Position numbers and translations under genes: made by a program. Below the pieces are notes generated by a model, which did no database searches, was not told the DNA's origin, and was given only the letters and a program-made list of their open reading frames with translations. Of a stretch of 64,000 nucleotides of DNA, positions 4,666 to 45,998 are shown in pieces. Each line of letters opens with the position of its first letter. Position 1 is the stretch's first letter. The stretch is taken from assembly GCA_016201505.1 (NCBI GenBank), contig JACQCQ010000009.1, positions 65,991 through 129,990 of the forward strand, written 5' to 3'. The stretch comes from Candidatus Sungiibacteriota bacterium. GTDB taxonomy: Bacteria; Patescibacteriota; Minisyncoccia; Sungbacterales; JACQCQ01.

Positions 4666-6420
4666 ATGCCTTTAATCCACGACAATCAATTAAAAGCTCT
4701 TCTAAAGGACACAAATGTGGTCTCCGCCGAGCTTTTGACTGCCGCCGAAAAGGAATCAAAGTCGAAAGGTACGCGCCTCCGCGATGTGCTGCTGCATAAC
4801 AGCATGATTAAGGAGGAGGAACTGCATCGGCTGGAGGCTTATATTTTGGGTATCCCTTATGTTGATCTCGAAAAAGAAACGATTGATCCGCAGGTTTTGA
4901 ATATCATCCCCGAGCCGATTGCCAAAAAGAACAACATCGTCGCCTATAAAAAAGCCGGGAAGGATCTGGAGGTCGCCATGCTCGATCCGGAGGATATTCA
5001 GACGATCGAGTTCATTAAAAAGAAAGCCGGGCTGCGGATTTTGCCGCGACTTACGAACGCCGTTTCTATTAAGAATGTGCTTCTGCAGTATCAAAAATCG
5101 CTGGCAGCGGAATTTTCCGAGCTGATTTCAAAAGATACGGCGGAAGCCTTGACGGTCGCGGGAGAGACGGGGAAACCGATTGATGATAAGGATTTGCAGA
5201 AAATGGCCGAAGATCTGCCGATTATTCGGATTGTCGACTCTATTATTCGGCATGCGATTTTAAGCCAAGCCTCGGATATTCACATTGAGCCGGCGGAAAA
5301 AGAAGTTATTGTGCGCTATCGGATTGACGGTATTTTGCATGACGAGATGAAATTGCCGAGAGAAACCGCAGCCGGGGTGGCGGCACGCATTAAAGTTATG
5401 GCGAACTTAAAATTAGATGAGCATCGGCTGCCACAGGACGGACGATTTAAAATCGAAACGTCTGAATATAAGTTTTCATTCCGCGTCTCGGTTCTGCCGG
5501 TTTTTGATGGTGAGAAAATTGTGGTGCGTCTATTGCCAGAAGGCGCGCATAGCCTTTCACTTGAGCAGCTCGGATTTTTTGGCGTGGGGCTGGAACGCAT
5601 CCATAAGGCGATTGTAAAACCCACCGGCATTATCTTGGCAACTGGTCCCACGGGCTCCGGCAAAACAACGACGCTCTACACTATTTTGGATATCTTAAAT
5701 CAGCCGGGCGTTAATATTTCAACCATTGAAGATCCGGTGGAGTACCGCATGCCAAGAGTCAATCAAACGCAGGTGCGCCCCGATATCGGCCTCACCTTTG
5801 CCACAGGACTCCGCTCACTGTTGCGCCAAGATCCGAATATCATTATGGTCGGCGAGATTCGCGACAACGAGACGGCAAATCTTGCGATTAACGCGGCTCT
5901 CACCGGACACCTAGTGCTTTCAACACTCCACACCAATTCCGCCGCCGGCTCGCTGCCGCGGCTGCTTGATATGAAAATTGAGCCGTTTTTAATTGCTTCC
6001 ACCGTAAACGCCATTATTGCCCAACGGCTTGTCAGAACACTGACTGAAGAAAAAGAAATGCGGGTTTTAACCTCGGCCGAAATAAACGCGCTTTCGAAGC
6101 AGGTCGATCTTGAGAAAATTCTCGACAAGCTGAAAGAAGAGAAAATTATCGATAAAAAAACGAATCTCGACTCGCAGAAGTGGGGATTTCCTAAGCCTTC
6201 GGAAAAATCGAAAGACGGCTACAAGGGGCGCATTGGTATTCATGAGGTTTTGGACATGAGTCTTGCGATTAAAGATCTTATTCTAAAAAATTCAACCTCT
6301 GATCAAATCGAAGAAGAGGCCCGAAAAGAAGGCATGCTGACCATGCTCGAAGACGGATTTATTAAAGCCGCGCAGGGAATTACGAGTGTTGAGGAAGTAT
6401 TGAGAGTTACGAGTGAATGA
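4666..6420 (+). CDS. pilB: Type IV pilus assembly ATPase PilB (GspE family)
   Basis: 584 aa. N-terminal GspII_E domain, Walker A ILATGPTGSGKTTTLY, and Asp/His boxes. Confidence 0.95.
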   Translation: MPLIHDNQLKALLKDTNVVSAELLTAAEKESKSKGTRLRDVLLHNSMIKEEELHRLEAYILGIPYVDLEKETIDPQVLNIIPEPIAKKNNIVAYKKAGKDLEVAMLDPEDIQTIEFIKKKAGLRILPRLTNAVSIKNVLLQYQKSLAAEFSELISKDTAEALTVAGETGKPIDDKDLQKMAEDLPIIRIVDSIIRHAILSQASDIHIEPAEKEVIVRYRIDGILHDEMKLPRETAAGVAARIKVMANLKLDEHRLPQDGRFKIETSEYKFSFRVSVLPVFDGEKIVVRLLPEGAHSLSLEQLGFFGVGLERIHKAIVKPTGIILATGPTGSGKTTTLYTILDILNQPGVNISTIEDPVEYRMPRVNQTQVRPDIGLTFATGLRSLLRQDPNIIMVGEIRDNETANLAINAALTGHLVLSTLHTNSAAGSLPRLLDMKIEPFLIASTVNAIIAQRLVRTLTEEKEMRVLTSAEINALSKQVDLEKILDKLKEEKIIDKKTNLDSQKWGFPKPSEKSKDGYKGRIGIHEVLDMSLAIKDLILKNSTSDQIEEEARKEGMLTMLEDGFIKAAQGITSVEEVLRVTSE

Positions 6421-11414: not shown

Positions 11415-11696
11415 GATTTTTAATCGAATTAAATTCATAATTAAATTGCCGCCAAAGAAAAACTTGAAATTGTCATCGGTGCGGCTCACTTCGACTTCGC
11501 TCAGTACGAGCCGCCGCCTTTCCGTCCGCCAGCTGGCGGATTCGCGGGGGGATTTCCTCGCCCCGCCGTGGCGGGGCGAAAACGGTTCGCACTATTTCAA
11601 GAATACTGGACTGTATCAACACCCAATGGAGTGAGGGGGGGCGGTGCTCTGGCGAAGCTGCTACGAATAAGAGGCTCTTTTTGGCATAATAGAAAT

Positions 11697-13511
11697 GTGC
11701 CCTTTCGATTTTGTTTAAAAAATGGAGCGAGAGTTTCTGGCTTTAGTCTGATAGAAGTCGTCGTTGGCGTGGGTGTATTTTTAATTATCAGTGTCGGTGT
11801 CTACTCGGTCTATAAGGGAATTTTAAACGCGAATCGCCTGACGCGCGCACGTATCGAGGCGATTTCTCTCGCCAATGAAGAAATTGAACTGGCGCGAAAT
11901 TTGCCCTACGCCGAAGTGGGCACCATCGGCGGCATTCCCTCGGGTGTCATTTCGCAGTCCCAATCGACAACGCGCGACGGCATACCCTTTACCATCACCA
12001 CAACCATTCGCAGCATCGATGATCCGTTTGACGGAACCATCGGCGGAAATCCAAACGACACTGCGCCTGCTGACTACAAGTTAGTTGAGATTGCGATCGC
12101 GTGCACTGCGTGCAGTTCTTCATTCCAGCCGGTAATATTCACTACAACAGTTGCGCCCAAAAATTTGGAAGGGGCATCCACGAATGGCGCCTTATTCATT
12201 CGCGCCTTTGATGCGGCAGGCCTCGCGATTCCCGAGGCCAATGTCCATATTCAAAATAATCTCATAACTCCGAATATTTCGATTGACGATACGACCAACA
12301 ATCAAGGGCTTCTGCAGTTAATTGACGTGCCGCCCTCAATCAATGGCTATCAAATTACCGTTACAAAAAGCGGCTATTCAACCGATAAGACCTACCCGCC
12401 GGGCGGGAACGGGACGACCACTGCGGTCCTGCCGCATGCGACCGTTGCCCAGCAGACTGTGACGCAAACCAGCTTTGCCGTTGACCGTGTTGGTTCGCTC
12501 GATGCAGCGACAGTCAATAATGTTTGCAACGGCATTGCAGATATCAGTTATGTGGTCAGCGGCTCAAAATTAGTTGGCACCAATCCCAACGTTTTAAAAT
12601 ATCGGACGGCGCTGGCGACTGATTCAAACGGCAATCAGCATGTCGCAAACTTAGAGTGGGATTCATATAACGCCGCGATCGCCGCGTCGGGCTATACGCT
12701 GGCCGGCTCAATTCCGATTTTGCCTCTCAATCTGTCGCCGAATACGAATCAGAGCTTAACGTTCGTGTTGGCGGCCAAGCCAGCCGAGAGTATTCTCGTC
12801 ACGGTACGCGATGCGGCCACACTGCTCCCCCTAACCGGTGCCGAAGTCAATCTTTCCGGCGGAAGCTACAACCAGACACAAACCACCGGCCAGGGTTTTT
12901 TTAATCAGACTGATTGGTCGGGCGGGCCAGGCCAGACTCTATTTGCCGATCCCAGCGCCTACTTTTTTGATGATGGCAACATAGACGCTAATTCTCCAGC
13001 CGGGGATGTAATCTTAAAACAGGTGTTTGGCCAATATGTTGCTTCCGGTTATCTTGAGTCTTCGACCATTGATTTCGGGACCAGTATTAATTACGGGACG
13101 ATCGCCTGGGCGCCCGCATCCGAACCCCCCCAAACCGGACCGAGCAGCGTCCGATTTCAAATCGCGACTTCAAACGATGCGGCCACGACGACCTGGAATT
13201 TTCTCGGCCCGGACGGTACCGCCGGAACCTACTACGTCGCTTCGGGGACGAATATTAACGCCATTCATAATTTGAATCGGTATTTGAGATATCGCATGTA
13301 TTTGCAAACTGCCAACGCGAGCTACACGCCTGATGTGGCGGACGTAAGCATTACCTTCAACACCGGCTGCATACCCCCCGGTCAGGTGTTTTTTTCCGGT
13401 ATGAATTCGGGCAGCTATACGCTGCAAGTTTCAAAATCCGGCTACAGCACGTCAACAACGCCCGTTAGCATTTCCGGAAACGCGACGCAGATAATCGATT
13501 TAGGCCCATAG
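11697..13511 (+). CDS. Large type IV pilin-like protein (prepilin N-terminus plus an approximately 570-aa Thr/Ser/Asn-rich domain)
   Basis: Class III signal ...ARVSG/FSLIEVVVGVGVFLI. No in-frame ATG precedes it. The best in-frame start is GTG 11697, giving leader MPFRFCLKNGARVSG. Confidence 0.7.
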   Translation: MPFRFCLKNGARVSGFSLIEVVVGVGVFLIISVGVYSVYKGILNANRLTRARIEAISLANEEIELARNLPYAEVGTIGGIPSGVISQSQSTTRDGIPFTITTTIRSIDDPFDGTIGGNPNDTAPADYKLVEIAIACTACSSSFQPVIFTTTVAPKNLEGASTNGALFIRAFDAAGLAIPEANVHIQNNLITPNISIDDTTNNQGLLQLIDVPPSINGYQITVTKSGYSTDKTYPPGGNGTTTAVLPHATVAQQTVTQTSFAVDRVGSLDAATVNNVCNGIADISYVVSGSKLVGTNPNVLKYRTALATDSNGNQHVANLEWDSYNAAIAASGYTLAGSIPILPLNLSPNTNQSLTFVLAAKPAESILVTVRDAATLLPLTGAEVNLSGGSYNQTQTTGQGFFNQTDWSGGPGQTLFADPSAYFFDDGNIDANSPAGDVILKQVFGQYVASGYLESSTIDFGTSINYGTIAWAPASEPPQTGPSSVRFQIATSNDAATTTWNFLGPDGTAGTYYVASGTNINAIHNLNRYLRYRMYLQTANASYTPDVADVSITFNTGCIPPGQVFFSGMNSGSYTLQVSKSGYSTSTTPVSISGNATQIIDLGP

Positions 13512-13512
13512 C

Positions 13513-14139
13513 ATGAGAGCGTCTGCGAAAAAAACTGATGCAGCACTGCGCGGCGGGTATACGCTGGTTGAGTTTCTCGTTGCCATTGGGCTTTTGGTGC
13601 TCATCGGCATGATTGTCTATCAGTTTACCTACAGTGTCATCACCTACAGCCGAATCTTAACTTCCCAGTTAATCGCCCAGAATGAAGTGCGCAAGACGGT
13701 AGACGTGATGGTTGAAGAATTGCGCACCATGGCGACATCCGATTCGGGCGCCTACCCCATTGAGGCGGCGGCGACCAGTTCGCTTACCTTTTACTCCAGC
13801 ATTGATAATACTCCGTCAAAAGAGCGTGTCCGGTATTTCTTGCAAGGCTCGACCTTGGAAAAAGGCGTGATCCAGGCGACCGGAACTCCGCCGACGTACC
13901 CGGCGGCCAGTGAAGTCGTAACGCCGCTCGTCAATTTGATTGTGAACGGCACGACTTCGATTTTTTCATACTACGATGGGAGTTATGGCGGGACCTCCTC
14001 GCCGCTTACACTGCCTGTCATCATCTCGAGTGTCCGTTATATCAAGCTTTCTGTTATTGTGGATGATAACAATCGCTCGCCAAATCCCATTATGGTGACC
14101 TCATCCGTGACCCTGCGTAATCTAAAGGATAATTTTTAA
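13513..14139 (+). CDS. Type IV pilin / pseudopilin
   Basis: MRASAKKTDAALRGG/YTLVEFLVAIGLLVL prepilin motif with Glu5. Starts 2 nt after the previous stop. Confidence 0.75.
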   Translation: MRASAKKTDAALRGGYTLVEFLVAIGLLVLIGMIVYQFTYSVITYSRILTSQLIAQNEVRKTVDVMVEELRTMATSDSGAYPIEAAATSSLTFYSSIDNTPSKERVRYFLQGSTLEKGVIQATGTPPTYPAASEVVTPLVNLIVNGTTSIFSYYDGSYGGTSSPLTLPVIISSVRYIKLSVIVDDNNRSPNPIMVTSSVTLRNLKDNF

Positions 14140-14141
14140 CT

Positions 14142-15572
14142 ATGAAACGGCGATTGATTGACACGAGTAAACCTGCCAGCATGACGGTGACTGTGATTGT
14201 CTACGGCGCGGTTGCGATTTACATTATGGTCGGGCTGGTTAATTGGCTGCTGACCAACTCGCGGCTAAGTAAAGAACGCGTACATAAAGAAGAAGCCTTT
14301 GACGTGGCTGATGCCGGAGTCGAATATTACCGCTGGCATTTGGCGCACGCGGCCAATGATTACCAAGACGGAACCGGCCATGCTGGTCCGTACTACCACG
14401 ACTACAAAGATAAAGATGGAAATATTCTCGGCCAGTTTCGTTTAGATATCACCGCGCCCCCACTTGGCTCGACGCTGGTGACTATCAATTCAACGGGAAC
14501 GACGACCGCCAATCCAAACGTCAAGCGCGTCATCCAGGCTAAATATGCCATTCCGTCGCTTGCCAAGTATGCCGTGGTGGCCAATGACAACATGCGCTTT
14601 GGTGCCGGCACCGAAACCTTCGGACCGATTCAATCCAATCTCGGCATTCGTTTTGACGGCTTGGCGCATAATCTCATATCCAGCGCGCTTTCAACCTATA
14701 CCGATCCGGATAATGGTTTGAATGAATGGGCGGTTTACACGCAAGTTGCCCCGGCCGATCCCCGTCCTCCCACGGCTCTTCCCAGTCGTCCGGATGTATT
14801 CGTTGCCGGCCGGCAGCTTTCCGTGCCGGCGGTCGATTTTCCCGGCCTGACCGCCGATCTATCCGCATTAAAAACGCTTGGCCAGTCGGCCGACGGCCGG
14901 TATTTTGGACCTTCCGGCGGGCTCGGGTATCTCATGGTGCTAAAGACCAATGATACTTTCGATCTCTACAAAGTTACTTCGTTGCAAAATGCTCCCGGTG
15001 GATGCACCAATCAACTCAATCAATCGGGTTGGGGCACCTGGAGCGTCAAAAACAAAACGCTGCTGAATAATTACGCTTTTCCGGCAAACGGCGTGGTATT
15101 CCTGGAAGATCATGTCTGGATCGAGGGCCAAATTCAGACGGCCCGCCTTACGATCGCCTCCGGTAAGTTCCCCGAACAGCAGTCCACCAATACGAGCATT
15201 ACGGTAAATAACAACTTGCTCTATACGACCTATAATGGGCAAGATGTTCTGGGACTCATCGCGCAAAATAATTTTAATGTTGGTTTATTCAGTGCTTCCA
15301 CGCTTGAAATTGACGCTGCTTTGATTGCCAAAAATGGCCGAGCCGGGAGGTATTACTACGATGCTTCATGCGCTCCGAACTCGATTAAGACAAAGTTGAC
15401 GCTCGTCGGCATCATCGGAACGGCGCTGCGCTATGGGTTCGCCTACACCGATGGCACGGGATATACCACCAGGATCATTAATTATGATGCGAATCTGCTC
15501 TACGGCCCCCCGCCTTCATTTCCCTTGTCGGGGAATCAGTATCAGATTGTTTCCTGGCAGGAGGTAAAGTAG
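14142..15572 (+). CDS. Pilus-associated membrane-anchored protein (PilX/minor-pilin-like position)
   Basis: 476 aa with an N-terminal TM (TVTVIVYGAVAIYIMVGLV) but no canonical G-F-T-L-I-E motif. Coupled to the pilin gene. Confidence 0.55.
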   Translation: MKRRLIDTSKPASMTVTVIVYGAVAIYIMVGLVNWLLTNSRLSKERVHKEEAFDVADAGVEYYRWHLAHAANDYQDGTGHAGPYYHDYKDKDGNILGQFRLDITAPPLGSTLVTINSTGTTTANPNVKRVIQAKYAIPSLAKYAVVANDNMRFGAGTETFGPIQSNLGIRFDGLAHNLISSALSTYTDPDNGLNEWAVYTQVAPADPRPPTALPSRPDVFVAGRQLSVPAVDFPGLTADLSALKTLGQSADGRYFGPSGGLGYLMVLKTNDTFDLYKVTSLQNAPGGCTNQLNQSGWGTWSVKNKTLLNNYAFPANGVVFLEDHVWIEGQIQTARLTIASGKFPEQQSTNTSITVNNNLLYTTYNGQDVLGLIAQNNFNVGLFSASTLEIDAALIAKNGRAGRYYYDASCAPNSIKTKLTLVGIIGTALRYGFAYTDGTGYTTRIINYDANLLYGPPPSFPLSGNQYQIVSWQEVK

Positions 15573-15766: not shown

Positions 15767-16093
15767 ATGAACTTCTATCAGAAGGTCTACCAGGTTGTGA
15801 AAAAAATCCCAAGCGGCAAAGTTGCTACCTACGGCCAAATTGGCTCGATTATTTCTTCGCCACGGTCGGCACAGATTGTCGGATTCGCTCTGCGTGCTTT
15901 GCCGGAGAATTCGGGTGTCCCTTGGCAGCGCGTCATTAACTCTGAAGGCAGGATTTCAATTCAGAATTTGCGCCACAGGCAATCCGAGCAGGCGGACTTA
16001 TTGAAAAAAGAAGGTGTCGAGGTTGAATTTCGCGACAACGCTTACTGCGTTGATCTTGCAAAATATCTACATAGATTTAAAAGATTCGGGTAA
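15767..16093 (+). CDS. Alkyltransferase-like protein (ATL; catalytically inactive MGMT/Ogt DNA-binding domain)
   Basis: The MGMT C-terminal domain has PWQRVIN where active MGMT has PCHRV, so Trp replaces the Cys, as in YbaZ/Atl1. Confidence 0.8.
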   Translation: MNFYQKVYQVVKKIPSGKVATYGQIGSIISSPRSAQIVGFALRALPENSGVPWQRVINSEGRISIQNLRHRQSEQADLLKKEGVEVEFRDNAYCVDLAKYLHRFKRFG

Positions 16094-16138: not shown

Positions 16139-16192
16139 AAACCCATTTACTATTACTTTACACGATCGTGTAAAGTAATAGTAAATGGGTTT
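16139..16192. promoter_or_regulatory. 54-bp perfect palindrome centred on CGATCG, overlapping the start codon of the PaaX-like gene
   Basis: aaacccatttactattactttacacgat|cgtgtaaagtaatagtaaatgggttt has 27-bp arms with no mismatch. Confidence 0.55.
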
Positions 16193-16748
16193 GCGGGCGA
16201 AAAGGGGAGAAATTGTGCGAGGAGTACTGGCGGTACTTGCCGTATCTGCGGTGGTTCTTGCGGCTGCGACGTTTCCCGGTGCAGCGATTGCCCTGCGGCC
16301 CTTTTTTAAACGAAAATCTAATAAGATGAAACAGCGATCAGTCGAAGCCGCAGTGAAGCGCTTGAAAGAAAGGCGGCTGGTTGAAATTGTAATGAAAAAT
16401 GGAACGGAAACGCTCTCGATTACCGAACGGGGGAGAGGCTATTTAAAGCGTCTGGACTTTGATTTGCGTCGACTTCCTGTTCCAAAACATTGGGATGGAC
16501 ACTGGACTGTGATATTGTTTGATATTCCCGAAACTGAGCGCAAAGGACGTGATGCCTTGCGAATAAAATTAAAACAGCTGGGGTGCTTTAAATTCCATAA
16601 AAGCGTATTTGTGCATCCCGCTGATTGTGAAGATGAGATAGATTTTGTTACTGAAATTTTTGGTATACGACGCTATGTCACGGTATTTCGCACGAAGCAA
16701 TTAGGTCACCAAGAATATAGGGCAGTACGGTACTTCGAACTTTCTTGA
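16185..16748 (+). CDS. PaaX-family-like regulator (winged helix plus Cas2-like/PaaX C-terminal domain) with a hydrophobic N-terminus
   Basis: WDGHWTVILFDIPETERKGRDALRIKLKQLGCFKFHKSVFVHP matches the PaaX W-G-W-Y-PE...SVW pattern. Upstream is the wHTH-like stretch VKRLKERRLVEIVMKNG. Confidence 0.55.
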   Translation: MGLRAKRGEIVRGVLAVLAVSAVVLAAATFPGAAIALRPFFKRKSNKMKQRSVEAAVKRLKERRLVEIVMKNGTETLSITERGRGYLKRLDFDLRRLPVPKHWDGHWTVILFDIPETERKGRDALRIKLKQLGCFKFHKSVFVHPADCEDEIDFVTEIFGIRRYVTVFRTKQLGHQEYRAVRYFELS

Positions 16749-16845
16749 TCCATTGATTTATTCACTCACTCGCGACCGGTCACCGTTGCCCAGCGGTCAT
16801 TAATAGCTATGCAAGTCATTCATAGCTATGTAATATAAAGCGCAT

Positions 16846-16883
16846 CCGCTATTACTTTACACGATCGTGTAAAGTAATAGCGG
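16846..16883. promoter_or_regulatory. 38-bp perfect palindrome, second copy of the core ctattactttacacgatcgtgtaaagtaatag
   Basis: 19-bp arms. It shares a 32-bp identical core with 16139-16192 and lies 98 bp after the PaaX-like stop. Confidence 0.55.
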
Positions 16884-16940
16884 GACGTTTGTAGTTTTCC
16901 ATACGTTATTCTCTTTTTAAATACGGCCGCAATTAAAATC

Positions 16941-16966
16941 AAAACCCGCCTTTAGAGGCGGGTTTT
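16941..16966 (-). terminator. Terminator hairpin overlapping the hisS stop codon
   Basis: aaaacccgcc-ttta-gaggcgggtttt. On the minus strand it is followed by A/T-rich sequence. Confidence 0.6.
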
Positions 16967-18292
16967 GATGTAAGCAGCTAAATCTTTTTCCTCTACCGAC
17001 TCTTGTTTCCCGCTTCGCAGATCTTTTATTTCAATCTTGCCGCTGGCGCGCTCCTTTTCGCCGTACAGCAGAATGAAAGGAATTTCTTTTTTTACCGCGT
17101 AGGCCAGTTGATTTTGAAATGCGCGGTCGTCTCCCAGATAAAGAGCCGTGTTAATGCCGTATGCGCGGGTGGCGCTGGCGAATCTGGCGTAATCGCTAGC
17201 AAATTCGTCGGCTAAATTAAAAATTAAAACTTGTACGAGCGTTTTTCGCTTTTGGATCGTGCCGATGGTTTCGAGTGCCGCGTACAGGCGATCAATGCCA
17301 AGCGAGGCGCCCACGGCCGGAGTCGAATCTTTGGAGAACCGGTTGGTGAGCCCGTCATAGCGCCCTCCAGCAAATATGGTCCCGATATTCGGCAAGTCGG
17401 TAAGCAGAATCTCAAATACCGTGCCGGTGTAGTAGCCAAGCCCCCGCACCAGTGAAGCGTCATAAATTAAATATTTTTGCGGGACCCCAAAAGCTTCGAC
17501 TTTTTGGCGGAGCTCGCGGATGCTGGTTGAATCAAGTAAATTCTCGCCGGAAATCTTCCAAAGGTACTCTTTCAATTTTTCGTCTTCAAGCCCAGAAGCT
17601 CCCGCGACTTCATCCGCCCACTCATCGGGCAGGATCTTATCTTTTTTATCAACCGCGATTAGCGTCGCCATTGTGCGATCTTCGGGAACTCCGACCTCGT
17701 CTAAAAGCTTCAGCGCTTCTTCTTTGTTGTTTAGCCGGATCATAAACTCATCGATGCCGAGTGCTTTCATCGTCTCATACATGACCTGAATAATTTCAGC
17801 GTCCGCGTCCGGTGATTTTACTCCCAGAATATCAATGTCCGCCTGGATAAATTCGCGGTAGCGTCCGGCTTGAGACCGCTCCCCCCTCCAGACTTTGGCG
17901 ATTTGATAACGCTTAAAGGGTTTGGCAATATCCGGATTTTTTGCGAGCACGCGGGCGAGCGGCACGGTTAAATCAAATCGAAGCGACTTGTCCTGAGCTT
18001 TGTCGAAGGAGGTATCAGATGAATCAGCCTCATCCCGCGAACCTTTGACGTTAAAAATTATTTTAGCTGACTCTGACTCGCCTCCGGTCAAGACTTCTGT
18101 CCGCTCGATGGCCGAAGTCTGCATGGGGTCATAGCCAAAGCGTTCATAAACGCCTTTTACAATCTCGATCATGGCTTCTTTGGCGATGGCATCTTCCGGC
18201 AGGGCGTCGCGAAAGCCGCCCGGCAATTCGGGATCGATCATTTTTTTATTTTGCGGTTTTTTCGTTTCGTCCATGACAACATTCACCCCCAC
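16952..18292 (-). CDS. hisS: Histidyl-tRNA synthetase
   Basis: Class II motifs: KRYQIAKVWRGERSQAGRYREFIQADIDILG (motif 2) and GGRYDGL (motif 3). C-terminal anticodon-binding domain. Confidence 0.95.
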   Translation of the reverse strand: MGVNVVMDETKKPQNKKMIDPELPGGFRDALPEDAIAKEAMIEIVKGVYERFGYDPMQTSAIERTEVLTGGESESAKIIFNVKGSRDEADSSDTSFDKAQDKSLRFDLTVPLARVLAKNPDIAKPFKRYQIAKVWRGERSQAGRYREFIQADIDILGVKSPDADAEIIQVMYETMKALGIDEFMIRLNNKEEALKLLDEVGVPEDRTMATLIAVDKKDKILPDEWADEVAGASGLEDEKLKEYLWKISGENLLDSTSIRELRQKVEAFGVPQKYLIYDASLVRGLGYYTGTVFEILLTDLPNIGTIFAGGRYDGLTNRFSKDSTPAVGASLGIDRLYAALETIGTIQKRKTLVQVLIFNLADEFASDYARFASATRAYGINTALYLGDDRAFQNQLAYAVKKEIPFILLYGEKERASGKIEIKDLRSGKQESVEEKDLAAYIKTRL

Positions 18293-18302
18293 GCCAAAAG
18301 GC

Positions 18303-18560
18303 TTAAAGGGAGATAGATTCTTTTATCCTTTTTTGGAGTTGTTGTAAAGCACGGGCTCTAAGCTTTAGGTTTTTCTCTCTTTGTCTTGCCTCAGACTCGC
18401 TTCGATACGCTTCGTAATAGACTGGTCTAAGAGGGCGACGAAATTTTGTTGAAGCTATTAATCCTGAATTGTGCTCACGTAATCTCCGTCTCAAGTCATT
18501 CGTAGAACCAGTATACAGCTTTAGGTCTTTTAGACTTTTCAAAATGTACACGAAGAACAT
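18303..18560 (-). CDS. GIY-YIG nuclease-domain small protein
   Basis: MFFVYILKSLKDLKLYTGSTNDLRRRLREHNSG. The ORF track extends it to 18620. Confidence 0.8.
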   Translation of the reverse strand: MFFVYILKSLKDLKLYTGSTNDLRRRLREHNSGLIASTKFRRPLRPVYYEAYRSESEARQREKNLKLRARALQQLQKRIKESISL

Positions 18561-18641
18561 GTGGACATATTTTATCATAACTAAGCCTTTTGGTGTGGGG
18601 GTAAAACTTGATATTTTCAACTAAACTGTCTTAATAAGGAC

Positions 18642-18890
18642 ATGGAAACGCCTATTGGAAAGGTCGTGCACTATTTCGGCAAGGTGGGGGCGGCAGTCGT
18701 CAAACTGACACAGCCCCTGGCAGTCGGCGATAAGATCAAAATCAAAGACGGGGAAAACTCCTGGGAGCAGGAGGTCGCCTCGATGCAGGTTGATCGGGTT
18801 GCTGTTTCATCTGCCAAGGCCGGAGACGAGGTTGCGATCAAGCTGGATAGCAAGGCGCGCGAGGGCGCGTTGCTTATCGTAGAAAAGTAG
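18642..18890 (+). CDS. Small beta-barrel protein resembling translation-factor domain 2
   Basis: 82 aa. VGDKIKIKDGENSWEQEV...GDEVAIKLD pattern. Assignment by eye only. Confidence 0.4.
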   Translation: METPIGKVVHYFGKVGAAVVKLTQPLAVGDKIKIKDGENSWEQEVASMQVDRVAVSSAKAGDEVAIKLDSKAREGALLIVEK

Positions 18891-20163: not shown

Positions 20164-20199
20164 AAAAGTAATAACCCTTCGCGAAGGGTTATTACTTTT
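20164..20199. terminator. 36-bp perfect palindrome; likely bidirectional terminator
   Basis: aaaagtaataacccttcg|cgaagggttattactttt, T-rich on both sides. Confidence 0.5.
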
Positions 20200-43187: not shown

Positions 43188-43427
43188 ATGACGCAAAAAG
43201 TATTGAAAGTTGGCTCTTCGGCGGCGGTGACGATTCCCAAAAAGTCTTTAAAAGAACTGGGGCTTAAAATCGGCGATGAGGTTCAGGTGGATGTGGATCA
43301 GCGGAGGAAGTTGGTTTCAATTACTCCTGCCCAAAATCTCTCCAAGGAAGACTCTAAAATTGCAAAATTGACACTTGCATTCATCGAGAGATACCGAAAA
43401 GACTTAGAATCGCTCGCCGATAAATAA
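43188..43427 (+). CDS. AbrB/SpoVT-fold antitoxin partnered with Doc
   Basis: MTQKVLKVGSSAAVTIPKKSLKELGLKIGDEV. Confidence 0.7.
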   Translation: MTQKVLKVGSSAAVTIPKKSLKELGLKIGDEVQVDVDQRRKLVSITPAQNLSKEDSKIAKLTLAFIERYRKDLESLADK

Positions 43428-43817
43428 GTGAAGTATTTACGATACTCACAGATTTTTCTGATTCATTCAATGATGATTGATGAAACAGGTGGCAGTCACG
43501 GCGTGAGAGATTCTCATGCAATTTTAAGTTTGGAACATTCTCCGAGGCAAAAAGTATTTGGGAAAACACTCTATCCTTCAGTGTACCAAAAGGCCGCGGT
43601 GTATGCGCGAGCTATCATTATGGAGCATCCATTTATTGACGGAAATAAGCGGACCGGCATTTCAGCAGCCAGTATTTTTTTGGAGAATAATGGTTACCAA
43701 CTCATTGCCAAAGAGGGCGAACTTGAGTCGTTTGCATTGCGAATTGTGGATCAAAAATATGGAATAGCAGAAATTGCCGGCTGGTTTCGCAAGAACTCAA
43801 GGAGAAATAAAAAATAA
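43428..43817 (+). CDS. doc: Doc (death-on-curing) Fic-family toxin
   Basis: Fic motif HPFIDGNKRTGISAASIFL. Confidence 0.85.
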   Translation: MKYLRYSQIFLIHSMMIDETGGSHGVRDSHAILSLEHSPRQKVFGKTLYPSVYQKAAVYARAIIMEHPFIDGNKRTGISAASIFLENNGYQLIAKEGELESFALRIVDQKYGIAEIAGWFRKNSRRNKK

Positions 43818-43838: not shown

Positions 43839-43870
43839 TTATTCTCATATTCTTGAGAATATGAGAATAA
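43839..43870. repeat. AT-rich perfect palindrome P (variant) at a cassette boundary
   Basis: ttattctcatattct-tg-agaatatgagaataa. Related to 45304-45339 and 45969-45998. Confidence 0.6.
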
Positions 43871-44041: not shown

Positions 44042-44149
44042 ATGACGCAAAAAGTATTGAAAGTCGGCTCTTCGGCGGCCGTTACGATTTCCAAAAAATC
44101 TTTGAAAGAGCTCGGTCTTAAAATCGGCGCAATATTAACATATGATTGA
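44042..44149 (+). pseudogene. Truncated copy (35 codons) of the Doc-partner antitoxin gene
   Basis: First 31 codons are identical to 44667-44897, then it diverges to a stop. Confidence 0.5.
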
Positions 44150-44666: not shown

Positions 44667-44897
44667 ATGACACAAAAAGTATTGAAAGTCGGCTCTTCGG
44701 CGGCCGTTACGATTTCCAAAAAATCTTTGAAAGAGCTCGGTCTTAAAATCGGGGATGAGGTGCGAGTGAACATTAATCACAAAGAAAAGCTTGTGATTAT
44801 TGAGCCGGCGCATCAAGTGAAAAAGGAATTGCTTGATTGGACGGAGCAGTTTATTAAAACCTACCGGCCGGCCTTGCTCGCGCTCGCGAAAAAATGA
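44667..44897 (+). CDS. AbrB/SpoVT-fold antitoxin (second copy)
   Basis: Paralogue of 43188-43427. Confidence 0.7.
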   Translation: MTQKVLKVGSSAAVTISKKSLKELGLKIGDEVRVNINHKEKLVIIEPAHQVKKELLDWTEQFIKTYRPALLALAKK

Positions 44898-45286
44898 CCC
44901 GATATCTGGATCCCGAGGAGATGCTCGTGATTCACGCGAAGATTATAGACGAAACGGGTGGACTCCACGGCGTACGAGATATGAACCTATTCGCCTCGAT
45001 TGCCGGGCGGCCGAAAATGCAGTTTGGCGGGAAAGAATTATATCCCTCGGTATTTGAAAAAGCAGCGGCATATTTTGAGTCTACTGCCTTTCATCATGTC
45101 TTTGTGGATGGAAACAAACGAACGGCAATCGCCATAGCTGCTCGTTTTCTTTTTCTCAATGGATACGACCTAACAACCTCAAATAAAGTTCTGGAGAGGT
45201 TTGTGCTTGGTACAGTCACGAAGAAATCTAATTTAAAAATCATCGCATTGTGGTTTCAAAAACATTCAAAGAAAATCAGAAAGTAG
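44894..45286 (+). CDS. doc: Doc toxin (second copy)
   Basis: HHVFVDGNKRTAIAIAARFL. Confidence 0.85.
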   Translation: MTRYLDPEEMLVIHAKIIDETGGLHGVRDMNLFASIAGRPKMQFGGKELYPSVFEKAAAYFESTAFHHVFVDGNKRTAIAIAARFLFLNGYDLTTSNKVLERFVLGTVTKKSNLKIIALWFQKHSKKIRK

Positions 45287-45303: not shown

Positions 45304-45339
45304 GTTTATTCTCAAGTTCTTAAGAACTTGAGAATAAAC
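45304..45339. repeat. 36-bp perfect palindrome P
   Basis: gtttattctcaagttctt|aagaacttgagaataaac. Confidence 0.6.
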
Positions 45340-45968: not shown

Positions 45969-45998
45969 TATTCTCAAGTTCTTAAGAACTTGAGAATA
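45969..45998. repeat. 30-bp perfect palindrome P
   Basis: tattctcaagttctt|aagaacttgagaata. Confidence 0.6.

Follow-up and report, generated by a model that had tools for sequence, protein, structure and literature searches.

Twin perfect palindromes around PaaX-like genes of Patescibacteria, predicted binding sites of the proteins encoded between them

The window analysed here, meaning the whole 64-kb stretch of DNA, is part of a contig from a metagenome-assembled genome (MAG) of Candidatus Sungbacteria, an ultra-small groundwater bacterium of the Patescibacteria. It contains a small gene encoding a PaaX-like protein, which is bracketed by two long perfect palindromes, P1 upstream and P2 downstream, sharing a 32-bp core. 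Comparison with homologous loci shows that such twin palindromes are the signature of a whole protein family and not a local oddity. We propose that they are the predicted cognate binding sites, on double-stranded DNA, of the dimeric protein encoded between them, and that this protein would act through them in autoregulation, as a roadblock and at dispersed sites. The account as a whole is given a probability of roughly 0.45; binding itself, which is predicted from the sequences, is judged more likely than that.

At the first three homologous loci inspected, palindromes were present on both sides of the gene, with sequences related to those of the window but different from them. A systematic scan for palindromes covered 89 homologous loci, 84 of them non-redundant, for a total of 512 kb. 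It gave 132 long palindromes, of which 30 end at most 100 bp before the start codon of a family gene and 40 begin at most 100 bp past its stop codon, while one lies within the gene. Strong flanking palindromes are found at 53 of the 84 non-redundant loci, and weaker ones, with a centre of the same type, occur at most of the remaining loci. In most loci, the downstream copy is placed 0-40 nt past the stop codon. A centre of the family type (CGATCG / GCTATAGC type) characterises 80 of 100 flanking palindromes versus 5 of 58 palindromes located elsewhere (Fisher p = 2e-19). GCTATAGC, in 22 cases, and ACGATCGT, in 20, are the most frequent centres, ahead of GCGATAGC and GCGGTCGC. At 18 non-redundant loci, the copies before and after the gene match each other and differ from those of other loci, locus L021 having identical 36-mers on its two sides. 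Paralogs of one genome also have different palindromes, as seen when the window is compared with L001, and again at L105. At locus L100 (990-1260 and 2039-2235), TGGTTTTTTGTTTT and repeated blocks come after two of the three palindromes around the family gene; by eye only, these blocks resemble minus-strand tRNA genes, which makes the palindromes candidates for elements at tRNA gene ends.

The family is large, with 770 clusters (50% identity) at E <=1e-30 and 3027 at E <=1e-10. All loci from species-representative genomes (80/80) belong to Patescibacteria MAGs, often with several paralogs per genome, and the window's own MAG has a second member of 57% identity. Neighbouring genes are diverse and unrelated housekeeping genes, 104 Pfam families being represented among 75 upstream neighbours and 87 among 66 downstream ones. 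A link to pilin genes was dropped, since this analysis shows no conserved partner gene. Orthologues in related species retain the flanking genes and part of the arm sequence, and these comparisons therefore indicate vertical inheritance of the family genes. Among 2.9 million viral contigs a single weak relative of the family was found, and the window's core had no match there, so that a phage origin was rejected. At locus L182 (227-928), a palindrome-bracketed family gene appears to be split into two overlapping fragments of its open reading frame (ORF), which might reflect a frameshift that turned it into a pseudogene, or else a mistake of the assembly.

In the window, the unit and its immediate surroundings are as follows.

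15767-16093: ATL-like gene, upstream neighbour, with a match to Pfam DNA_binding_1 only.
16139-16192, no strand: P1, the upstream palindrome, 54 bp, perfect, with 27-nt arms and no spacer.
16150-16181, no strand: first copy of the shared 32-bp core CTATTACTTTACACGATCGTGTAAAGTAATAG, inside P1, with the family-type centre ACGATCGT.
16185-16748, plus strand: PaaX-like gene HY220_02540, encoding a protein of 187 aa (MBI3627599.1).
16796-16833, no strand: tandem 19-bp repeat GTCATTAATAGCTATGCAA / GTCATTCATAGCTATGTAA, in the stretch that separates the stop codon from P2.
16846-16883, no strand: P2, the downstream palindrome, 38 bp, perfect, with 19-nt arms.
16849-16880, no strand: second copy of the shared core, inside P2.
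16952-18292, minus strand: hisS, convergent downstream neighbour.

P1 starts 45 nt past the ATL stop codon. The ORF of the PaaX-like gene begins within its right arm, to which the initial 8 nt of the gene, ATG included, belong. In the family alignment, a conserved N-terminal R/K-G-E motif precedes a possible GTG start at 16215, and because of this the ATG at 16185 is favoured as the predicted start codon. P2 starts 97 nt past the stop codon of the gene and lies 68 nt before that of hisS, on the opposite strand. Beyond the shared core, P1 has 11 additional symmetric base pairs (AAACCCATTTA / TAAATGGGTTT) and P2 has three (CCG / CGG). Perfect palindromes of these sizes are expected by chance about 4e-12 and 2e-7 times per window, and their folding z-scores range from -8 to -12.6. 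When up to 3 mismatches are allowed, the core occurs just twice in the window, against 0 occurrences in 100 shuffles, and it is absent from all fetched homologous loci and from the viral contigs searched.

A preliminary description of this stretch had reported the two palindromes with their common core between an ATL gene and a convergent hisS, and all of this is borne out. It had also considered that the core might be a generic terminator, or that relatives might possess the regulator without the palindromes; in the 64-kb window, with only two copies, the core is no generic terminator, and the relatives do carry palindromes. Two other candidates were rejected: a CRISPR-like array, because there are only two copies, 699 bp apart and enclosing a gene, and restriction-site avoidance, because CGATCG is observed 28 times in the window for 28 expected.

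The protein is made of a hydrophobic N-terminal helix, a winged helix (residues ~45-95) and a Cas2-like domain (residues 101-179), with no PaaX C-terminal domain. This Cas2-like domain corresponds to the central domain of PaaX, Pfam PaaX_M (PF20803), which was matched over residues 101-179 with 82.3 bits, versus a gathering cut-off of 24, and which is present in 93 of 93 homologues. In an AlphaFold model built on 31 homologues, its predicted local distance difference test score (pLDDT) is above 90. A Foldseek search of the PDB returned E. coli PaaX (8a39) as the top match (E = 2e-4, 135 columns), and then Rv0674, Cas2 proteins and VapD, with 3kfw in third place. The NCBIfam PaaX equivalog (TIGR02277) aligns residues 48-180 with positions 32-161 of a profile of 279, for 27.9 bits versus a cut-off of 264.55, and the C-terminal, ligand-binding half of PaaX is missing, as the protein ends at residue 187. 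Because of this score far below the cut-off and of the absent C-terminal half, the protein is PaaX-like in its winged helix and its Cas2-like dimerisation domain, yet it is not a PaaX. Its name in UniProt is already PaaX-like.

Matches to Cas2-type profiles, spanning residues 107-147, are weak and remain below the cut-offs (Pfam 16.8 vs 23.8; NCBIfam 20.7 vs 24.5). The Asp of the Cas2 beta1 motif FDIPE is invariant in the family alignment. An HUH/Y1 domain was not found with Pfam and NCBIfam, which give just PaaX_M/PaaX and these weak Cas2 matches, and searches of PDB sequences with the protein returned nothing significant. A long uncharged helix spans residues 8-27; it may anchor the protein in a membrane, or else open the winged-helix domain as its first helix.

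PaaX, the closest relative to have been characterised, binds TGATTC-N27-GAATCA, a dyad of 39 bp, and represses its own promoter (PMC9493321). The palindromes had been considered unusually long for operators in the preliminary description, and given this 39-bp dyad their length is less odd than it seemed. According to the reading that we prefer, each paralog would have its own palindrome, with arms specific to the paralog and a centre common to the family (ACGATCGT or GCTATAGC). From the copy at the start codon (P1), the protein would repress the gene that encodes it, in the manner of PaaX. The copy past the stop codon (P2) would be a second operator or a roadblock, and might isolate the ~700-bp unit from its neighbours, here from convergent hisS transcription. 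We infer that the main job of the protein would probably be at dispersed solo sites, as a roadblock, insulator or 3'-end element, with the flanking pair providing feedback, because related genomes hold solo palindromes, mostly at gene ends.

These solo palindromes were collected by scanning metagenome contigs for a single centre class (pattern ATNNTACGCTATAGCGTANNAT), which gave at least 120 stretches. A site was classed as solo when at least 900 bp were available on either side and no family gene lay within 250 bp, using simple, self-made ORF calls. The numbers that follow are those among the matches listed. In this independent sample, wherever two sites are spaced 608-687 bp apart (16/16 pairs), a family gene lies between them, and on one contig two family genes are each enclosed by a separate pair of palindromes. 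The 93 determinable sites are divided about equally, 46 adjoining a family gene and 47 being solo. Every solo is intergenic, with arms of mostly 17-26 nt, and no remnant of a family gene was detected at 45 of the 47; the remaining 2 are one extra upstream copy placed ~450 bp from a family gene, at L100 and its duplicate L173. Among 44 non-redundant solos, 20 are located between co-directional genes and 5 between divergent ones. The same arm variant recurs at several distinct places, flanking as well as solo (10, 7, 6, 6, 5... per type). The elements have sharp boundaries, and their full-length copies are almost identical. A Sungbacteria contig of 42 kb has a solo whose arms are identical to those of the upstream copy of the contig's own family gene (L136 vs L145/L015).

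A different arrangement was observed on a 1.8-kb contig (L127), where a pilin-like gene (532-1194) lies between two 110-nt repeats (318-427 and 1278-1387) that are 94% identical. Each repeat includes a family-type palindrome, and no family gene is present between them. The same contig has a second type of palindrome, with a CGATCG centre, 44 bp long and perfect, at 1527-1570.

The sites themselves were examined for features that would distinguish a duplex from a hairpin. Symmetry extends through the very centre, leaving no loop, in 54 of 84 flanking palindromes versus 14 of 54 others in the same DNA (p = 1e-5). Because a hairpin does not need it, this central symmetry favours a two-fold symmetric complex on duplex DNA. 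On the sense strand, an excess of G-U over A-C mismatches was not significant (10:11 in upstream copies, 17:9 in downstream copies, p = 0.17). Taken together, these two properties of the sequences agree better with a symmetric dimer bound to duplex DNA than with a hairpin of RNA. T-tracts past the hairpins are barely above background (3.4 vs 2.8 T per 10 nt), with 6 T or more in 3 of 37 downstream copies, and terminator prediction flagged P1 on the minus strand only and did not flag P2; T-runs do follow some copies in relatives. As the G-U bias is not significant and the T-tracts are near background, a hairpin in the sense-strand RNA or a canonical terminator appears not well supported.

It could still be that the palindromes are structural hairpins, serving as bidirectional terminators or mRNA stabilisers, which spread through local duplication and through gene conversion without being recognised by the protein, the gene being just an insulated transcription unit that stands alone. 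Such a role agrees with the high predicted stability of the hairpins, with downstream copies 0-40 nt past the stop codon, with the minus-strand terminator score of P1, with TGGTTTTTTGTTTT after two of the L100 copies and, among the matches listed, with the enrichment of solos between convergent genes. However, it does not tell why 46 of the 93 listed sites of one centre class adjoin one small gene family, why upstream copies exist at genes with a divergent upstream neighbour, or why a centre is common to the family; the near-background T-tracts, the missing sense-strand G-U bias and the loop-less structure of most copies also speak against it. We consider this explanation rather improbable.

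The dispersed copies suggest another possibility, in which the encoded protein copies or maintains them as single-stranded DNA hairpins, with a nuclease role for the Cas2-like domain and a targeting role for the winged helix, the gene being a resident inherited vertically, in single copy, between two of its elements. This would resemble the partnership of repetitive extragenic palindromes (REP) with RAYT proteins, whose published features are matched by the architecture of the unit (PMC3337134). Several observations go in this direction: flanking palindromes are specific to a paralog, and each arm type has solos at several places; among the matches listed, solos are intergenic, biased to gene 3' ends and, for 45 of 47, devoid of a family-gene remnant; boundaries are sharp, full-length copies near-identical, inheritance vertical and each copy symmetric on its own; and the Asp in FDIPE is invariant in a domain with weak Cas2 matches. 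But the protein has no HUH/Y1 domain and the palindromes no GTAG or CGTC tag, the copy number is low, with two flanking copies only in 64 kb, PaaX-like proteins are not known to act on DNA hairpins as Cas2-type nucleases, and central symmetry is more than a hairpin would require. We find it unlikely on balance, and hold to the same degree the wider proposal that Patescibacteria harbour an undescribed class of dispersed palindromes, propagated or maintained by a winged-helix/Cas2-like protein as a non-HUH analogue of the REPIN-RAYT system.

The position occupied by the unit was compared with the same junction in relatives. The closest relatives of the window's hisS have 63-66% identity, and two of them retain the order GIY-YIG/hisS/ATL/pilin-like without a family gene between ATL and hisS. 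In the first, L089, ATL and hisS overlap, and the junction has only an ordinary hairpin at the hisS end. In the second, L091, a spacer of 73 bp contains a solo palindrome of the family type, CATTATCTTCTGCTATAGCAGAAGATAATG; its arms differ from those of the window's sites, and exactly this palindrome recurs downstream of another member of the family, L009, whose context is different. Given these two junctions without the gene, one of them with a solo, the unit was gained or lost at the ATL-hisS position, and this position attracts or retains such palindromes. Near-identical units in differing contexts were not found among the loci examined, nor was evidence of recent mobility.

The solo at this very junction invites the idea of a cassette, made of the gene and one palindrome, that integrates and excises by site-specific recombination, solos being empty or vacated sites. 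The geometry of the sites recalls the core sites of tyrosine recombinases, and family genes are found in many unrelated housekeeping contexts. However, the arms of the L091 solo match a paralog (L009) and not the window. Asymmetric centres have the same orientation in L024, L035, L060 and L071 and opposite orientations in L019, L026 and L030, that is, about four loci versus about three (the window's own centre is symmetric), and such mixed orientations argue against directional site-specific recombination. The outer parts in which P1 and P2 differ are symmetric within each palindrome, unlike hybrid att sites, and no recombinase has been linked to the unit, whose immediate neighbours are ATL, hisS, GIY-YIG and pilin-like genes. 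A tiny mobile unit, one of the two possibilities raised in the preliminary description, is left with weak support: the two syntenic relatives without the gene, one with a solo palindrome, speak for it, and the lack of near-identical units elsewhere, the shared flanks of orthologues and the near absence of the family from viral contigs speak against it. We regard the cassette as very unlikely. Like the structural hairpins, it accounts for some of the data but leaves unexplained the association with a single family and the observations on orientation and flanks.

Recognition of the palindromes by the protein encoded between them is the most economical reading, and a number of results weigh against it. 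The N-terminal 100 residues of the AlphaFold model are weak (pLDDT ~45-65). Divergence of the arms was uncorrelated with that of the winged helix or of the Cas2-like domain (rho ~0), a comparison made uninformative by the fact that most arms are unrelated. On the plus strand, the vicinity of P1 showed no convincing promoter of the sigma-70 type; from its sequence, TAAAGT inside the P1 right arm is a possible -10 element, which would give a leaderless mRNA. Among the matches listed, 19 of the 44 non-redundant solos lie between convergent genes, versus 20% expected (p = 4e-4), where a classical operator would lack a promoter to act on, and the genes next to solos are unrelated housekeeping genes for which no common function was found. 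The other possibility raised in the preliminary description, autoregulatory operators, is thus upheld by the conserved, paralog-specific pairing of gene and palindrome, but a promoter operator leaves the solos between convergent genes unexplained.

Symmetry also poses a difficulty of its own. Differences between the two copies of a locus are compensated in 32 cases and uncompensated in 14, an excess that is partly due to ascertainment, and each copy is symmetric even where the two differ, as in the 11 extra pairs of P1. Recognition by a single protein does not require symmetry in these differing parts. Template-switch correction can keep long palindromes perfect. For the extra pairs of P1, beyond what recognition of the shared core would need, either base pairing is selected or such correction maintains the palindrome.

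Beyond the palindromes, the immediate neighbourhood of the unit consists of ATL, hisS, GIY-YIG and pilin-like genes. A hairpin with a 14-bp stem (ATCAAAACCCGCCT TTAG AGGCGGGTTTTGAT) at 16938-16969 overlaps the last codons and the stop of hisS; it is conserved at the corresponding position of L089, in which the two genes ATL and hisS overlap, and is probably the bidirectional terminator of the convergent pair. The stand-alone GIY-YIG gene (18303-18620, minus strand, 105 aa, Pfam 63 bits) adjoins hisS and is next to an 82-aa ORF (18642-18890, plus strand). In L089 the two keep their synteny with hisS, as does the 82-aa ORF in L091. Directly upstream of ATL, positions 11568-15572 hold three large genes with type IV pilin-like N-termini (GFSLIEVVV, GYTLVEFLVA), a cluster that is syntenic in L089 (N_methyl match). 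At 20164-20199 lies another perfect, loop-less palindrome of 36 bp, AAAAGTAATAACCCTTCGCGAAGGGTTATTACTTTT, with A/T runs at its ends and a centre that is not of the family type.

A second, unrelated set of long perfect palindromes is located at 43839-43870, 45304-45339 and 45969-45998 of the window, two copies sharing TATTCTCAAGTTCTTAAGAACTTGAGAATA. Each is followed, 40-60 nt further, by a conserved block of ~70 nt (~43915, 45363 and 46026; GGGCA..TTTTGTTTA...GGGAGCGGG..GGCAGACGGCGCGGC), and the set sits after the Doc-like toxin ORFs of AbrB/MazE-like + Doc pairs (43188-43817, 44667-45286). The 30-bp palindrome of 45304 and 45969 recurs at 6086-6117 of L089, in frame inside hisS (5001-6326), whose HisRS is 65% identical to that of the window; it encodes ..DYSQVLKNLRIEKI.. 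where the window HisRS has ..DYARFASATRAYGI.., and recalls the palindromic elements inserted in Rickettsia genes. A truncated duplicate of ~85 nt from the start of the AbrB/MazE-like antitoxin gene is found at 44042-44130 (compare 44667-44760), within the spacer that precedes a pair of small, unrelated genes.

The searchable literature on PaaX/Cas2 and on PaaX or palindromic repeats in Patescibacteria yielded no account of the paired palindromes, of their conservation across the family or of the solos. The recurrence of the layout and the solos points to an undescribed system of proteins and sites. Patescibacteria have tiny genomes with few regulators, and little is known of how their transcription is controlled or punctuated. 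A large family in which each member is tied to its own perfect palindrome of 30-50 bp offers protein-site pairs that can be tested in vitro although the organisms are uncultured. Should the palindromes act as roadblocks or insulators, the separation of genes in these compact genomes would be explained. If instead the protein processes them, this would be a second, independent partnership of the REP-RAYT type and a new activity of the Cas2 fold outside CRISPR.

Among known systems, PaaX has the same N-terminal winged helix and Cas2-like middle domain (PF20803; Foldseek match 8a39), and its 39-bp dyad and self-repression fit palindromes of 32-54 bp at the protein's own start codon. The window protein differs from PaaX by the lack of the C-terminal phenylacetyl-CoA-binding domain and by the absence of paa genes nearby; moreover, the sites of its family are full palindromes, centre included, which flank the gene at both ends and also occur as dispersed solos at gene ends, and several paralogs are found in one tiny genome.

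In lox, FRT, dif and the pdif modules of Acinetobacter plasmids, arms of ~13-16 bp are inverted around a centre of 6-8 bp. The window family shares with them the inverted arms and centre, the bracketing of one small gene and one case of presence and absence with a solo. It differs in that no recombinase has been linked to the unit, asymmetric centres lack a consistent orientation, signs of recent movement are absent, and the bracketed gene always belongs to the same family. With Cas2 and VapD, the protein has in common a ferredoxin fold, a beta1 motif with a conserved Asp (FDIPE) and weak matches at residues 107-147, whereas its scores are below every curated cut-off, neither cas1 nor a CRISPR array is present, and a winged helix is fused to the domain.

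A further parallel in layout is with REP or REPIN elements and RAYTs. The RAYT gene, of ~500 bp, is flanked by its own repeats, of a type tied to the paralog, and several single-copy paralogs exist per genome (PMC3337134). The window family likewise has a short gene flanked by its own palindromic repeats of a paralog-specific type, distinct single-copy paralogs, vertical inheritance, and solo repeats that are extragenic and often at 3' ends. REP palindromes are described with a GTAG or CGTC tag at one end (PMC3733652); no such tag was found at the ends of P1, P2 or the core (AAACCC..., CCGCTATTAC...). Also unlike the REP-RAYT case, the window protein does not belong to the HUH/Y1 transposases, its repeats are perfect and loop-less, and copies are apparently few per genome, two in the 64-kb window, versus tens to hundreds. 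Because the HUH/Y1 domain and the REP tags are missing and the copy number looks low, the window system falls outside the REP-RAYT class and would be a new kind of partnership between a protein and its palindromes.

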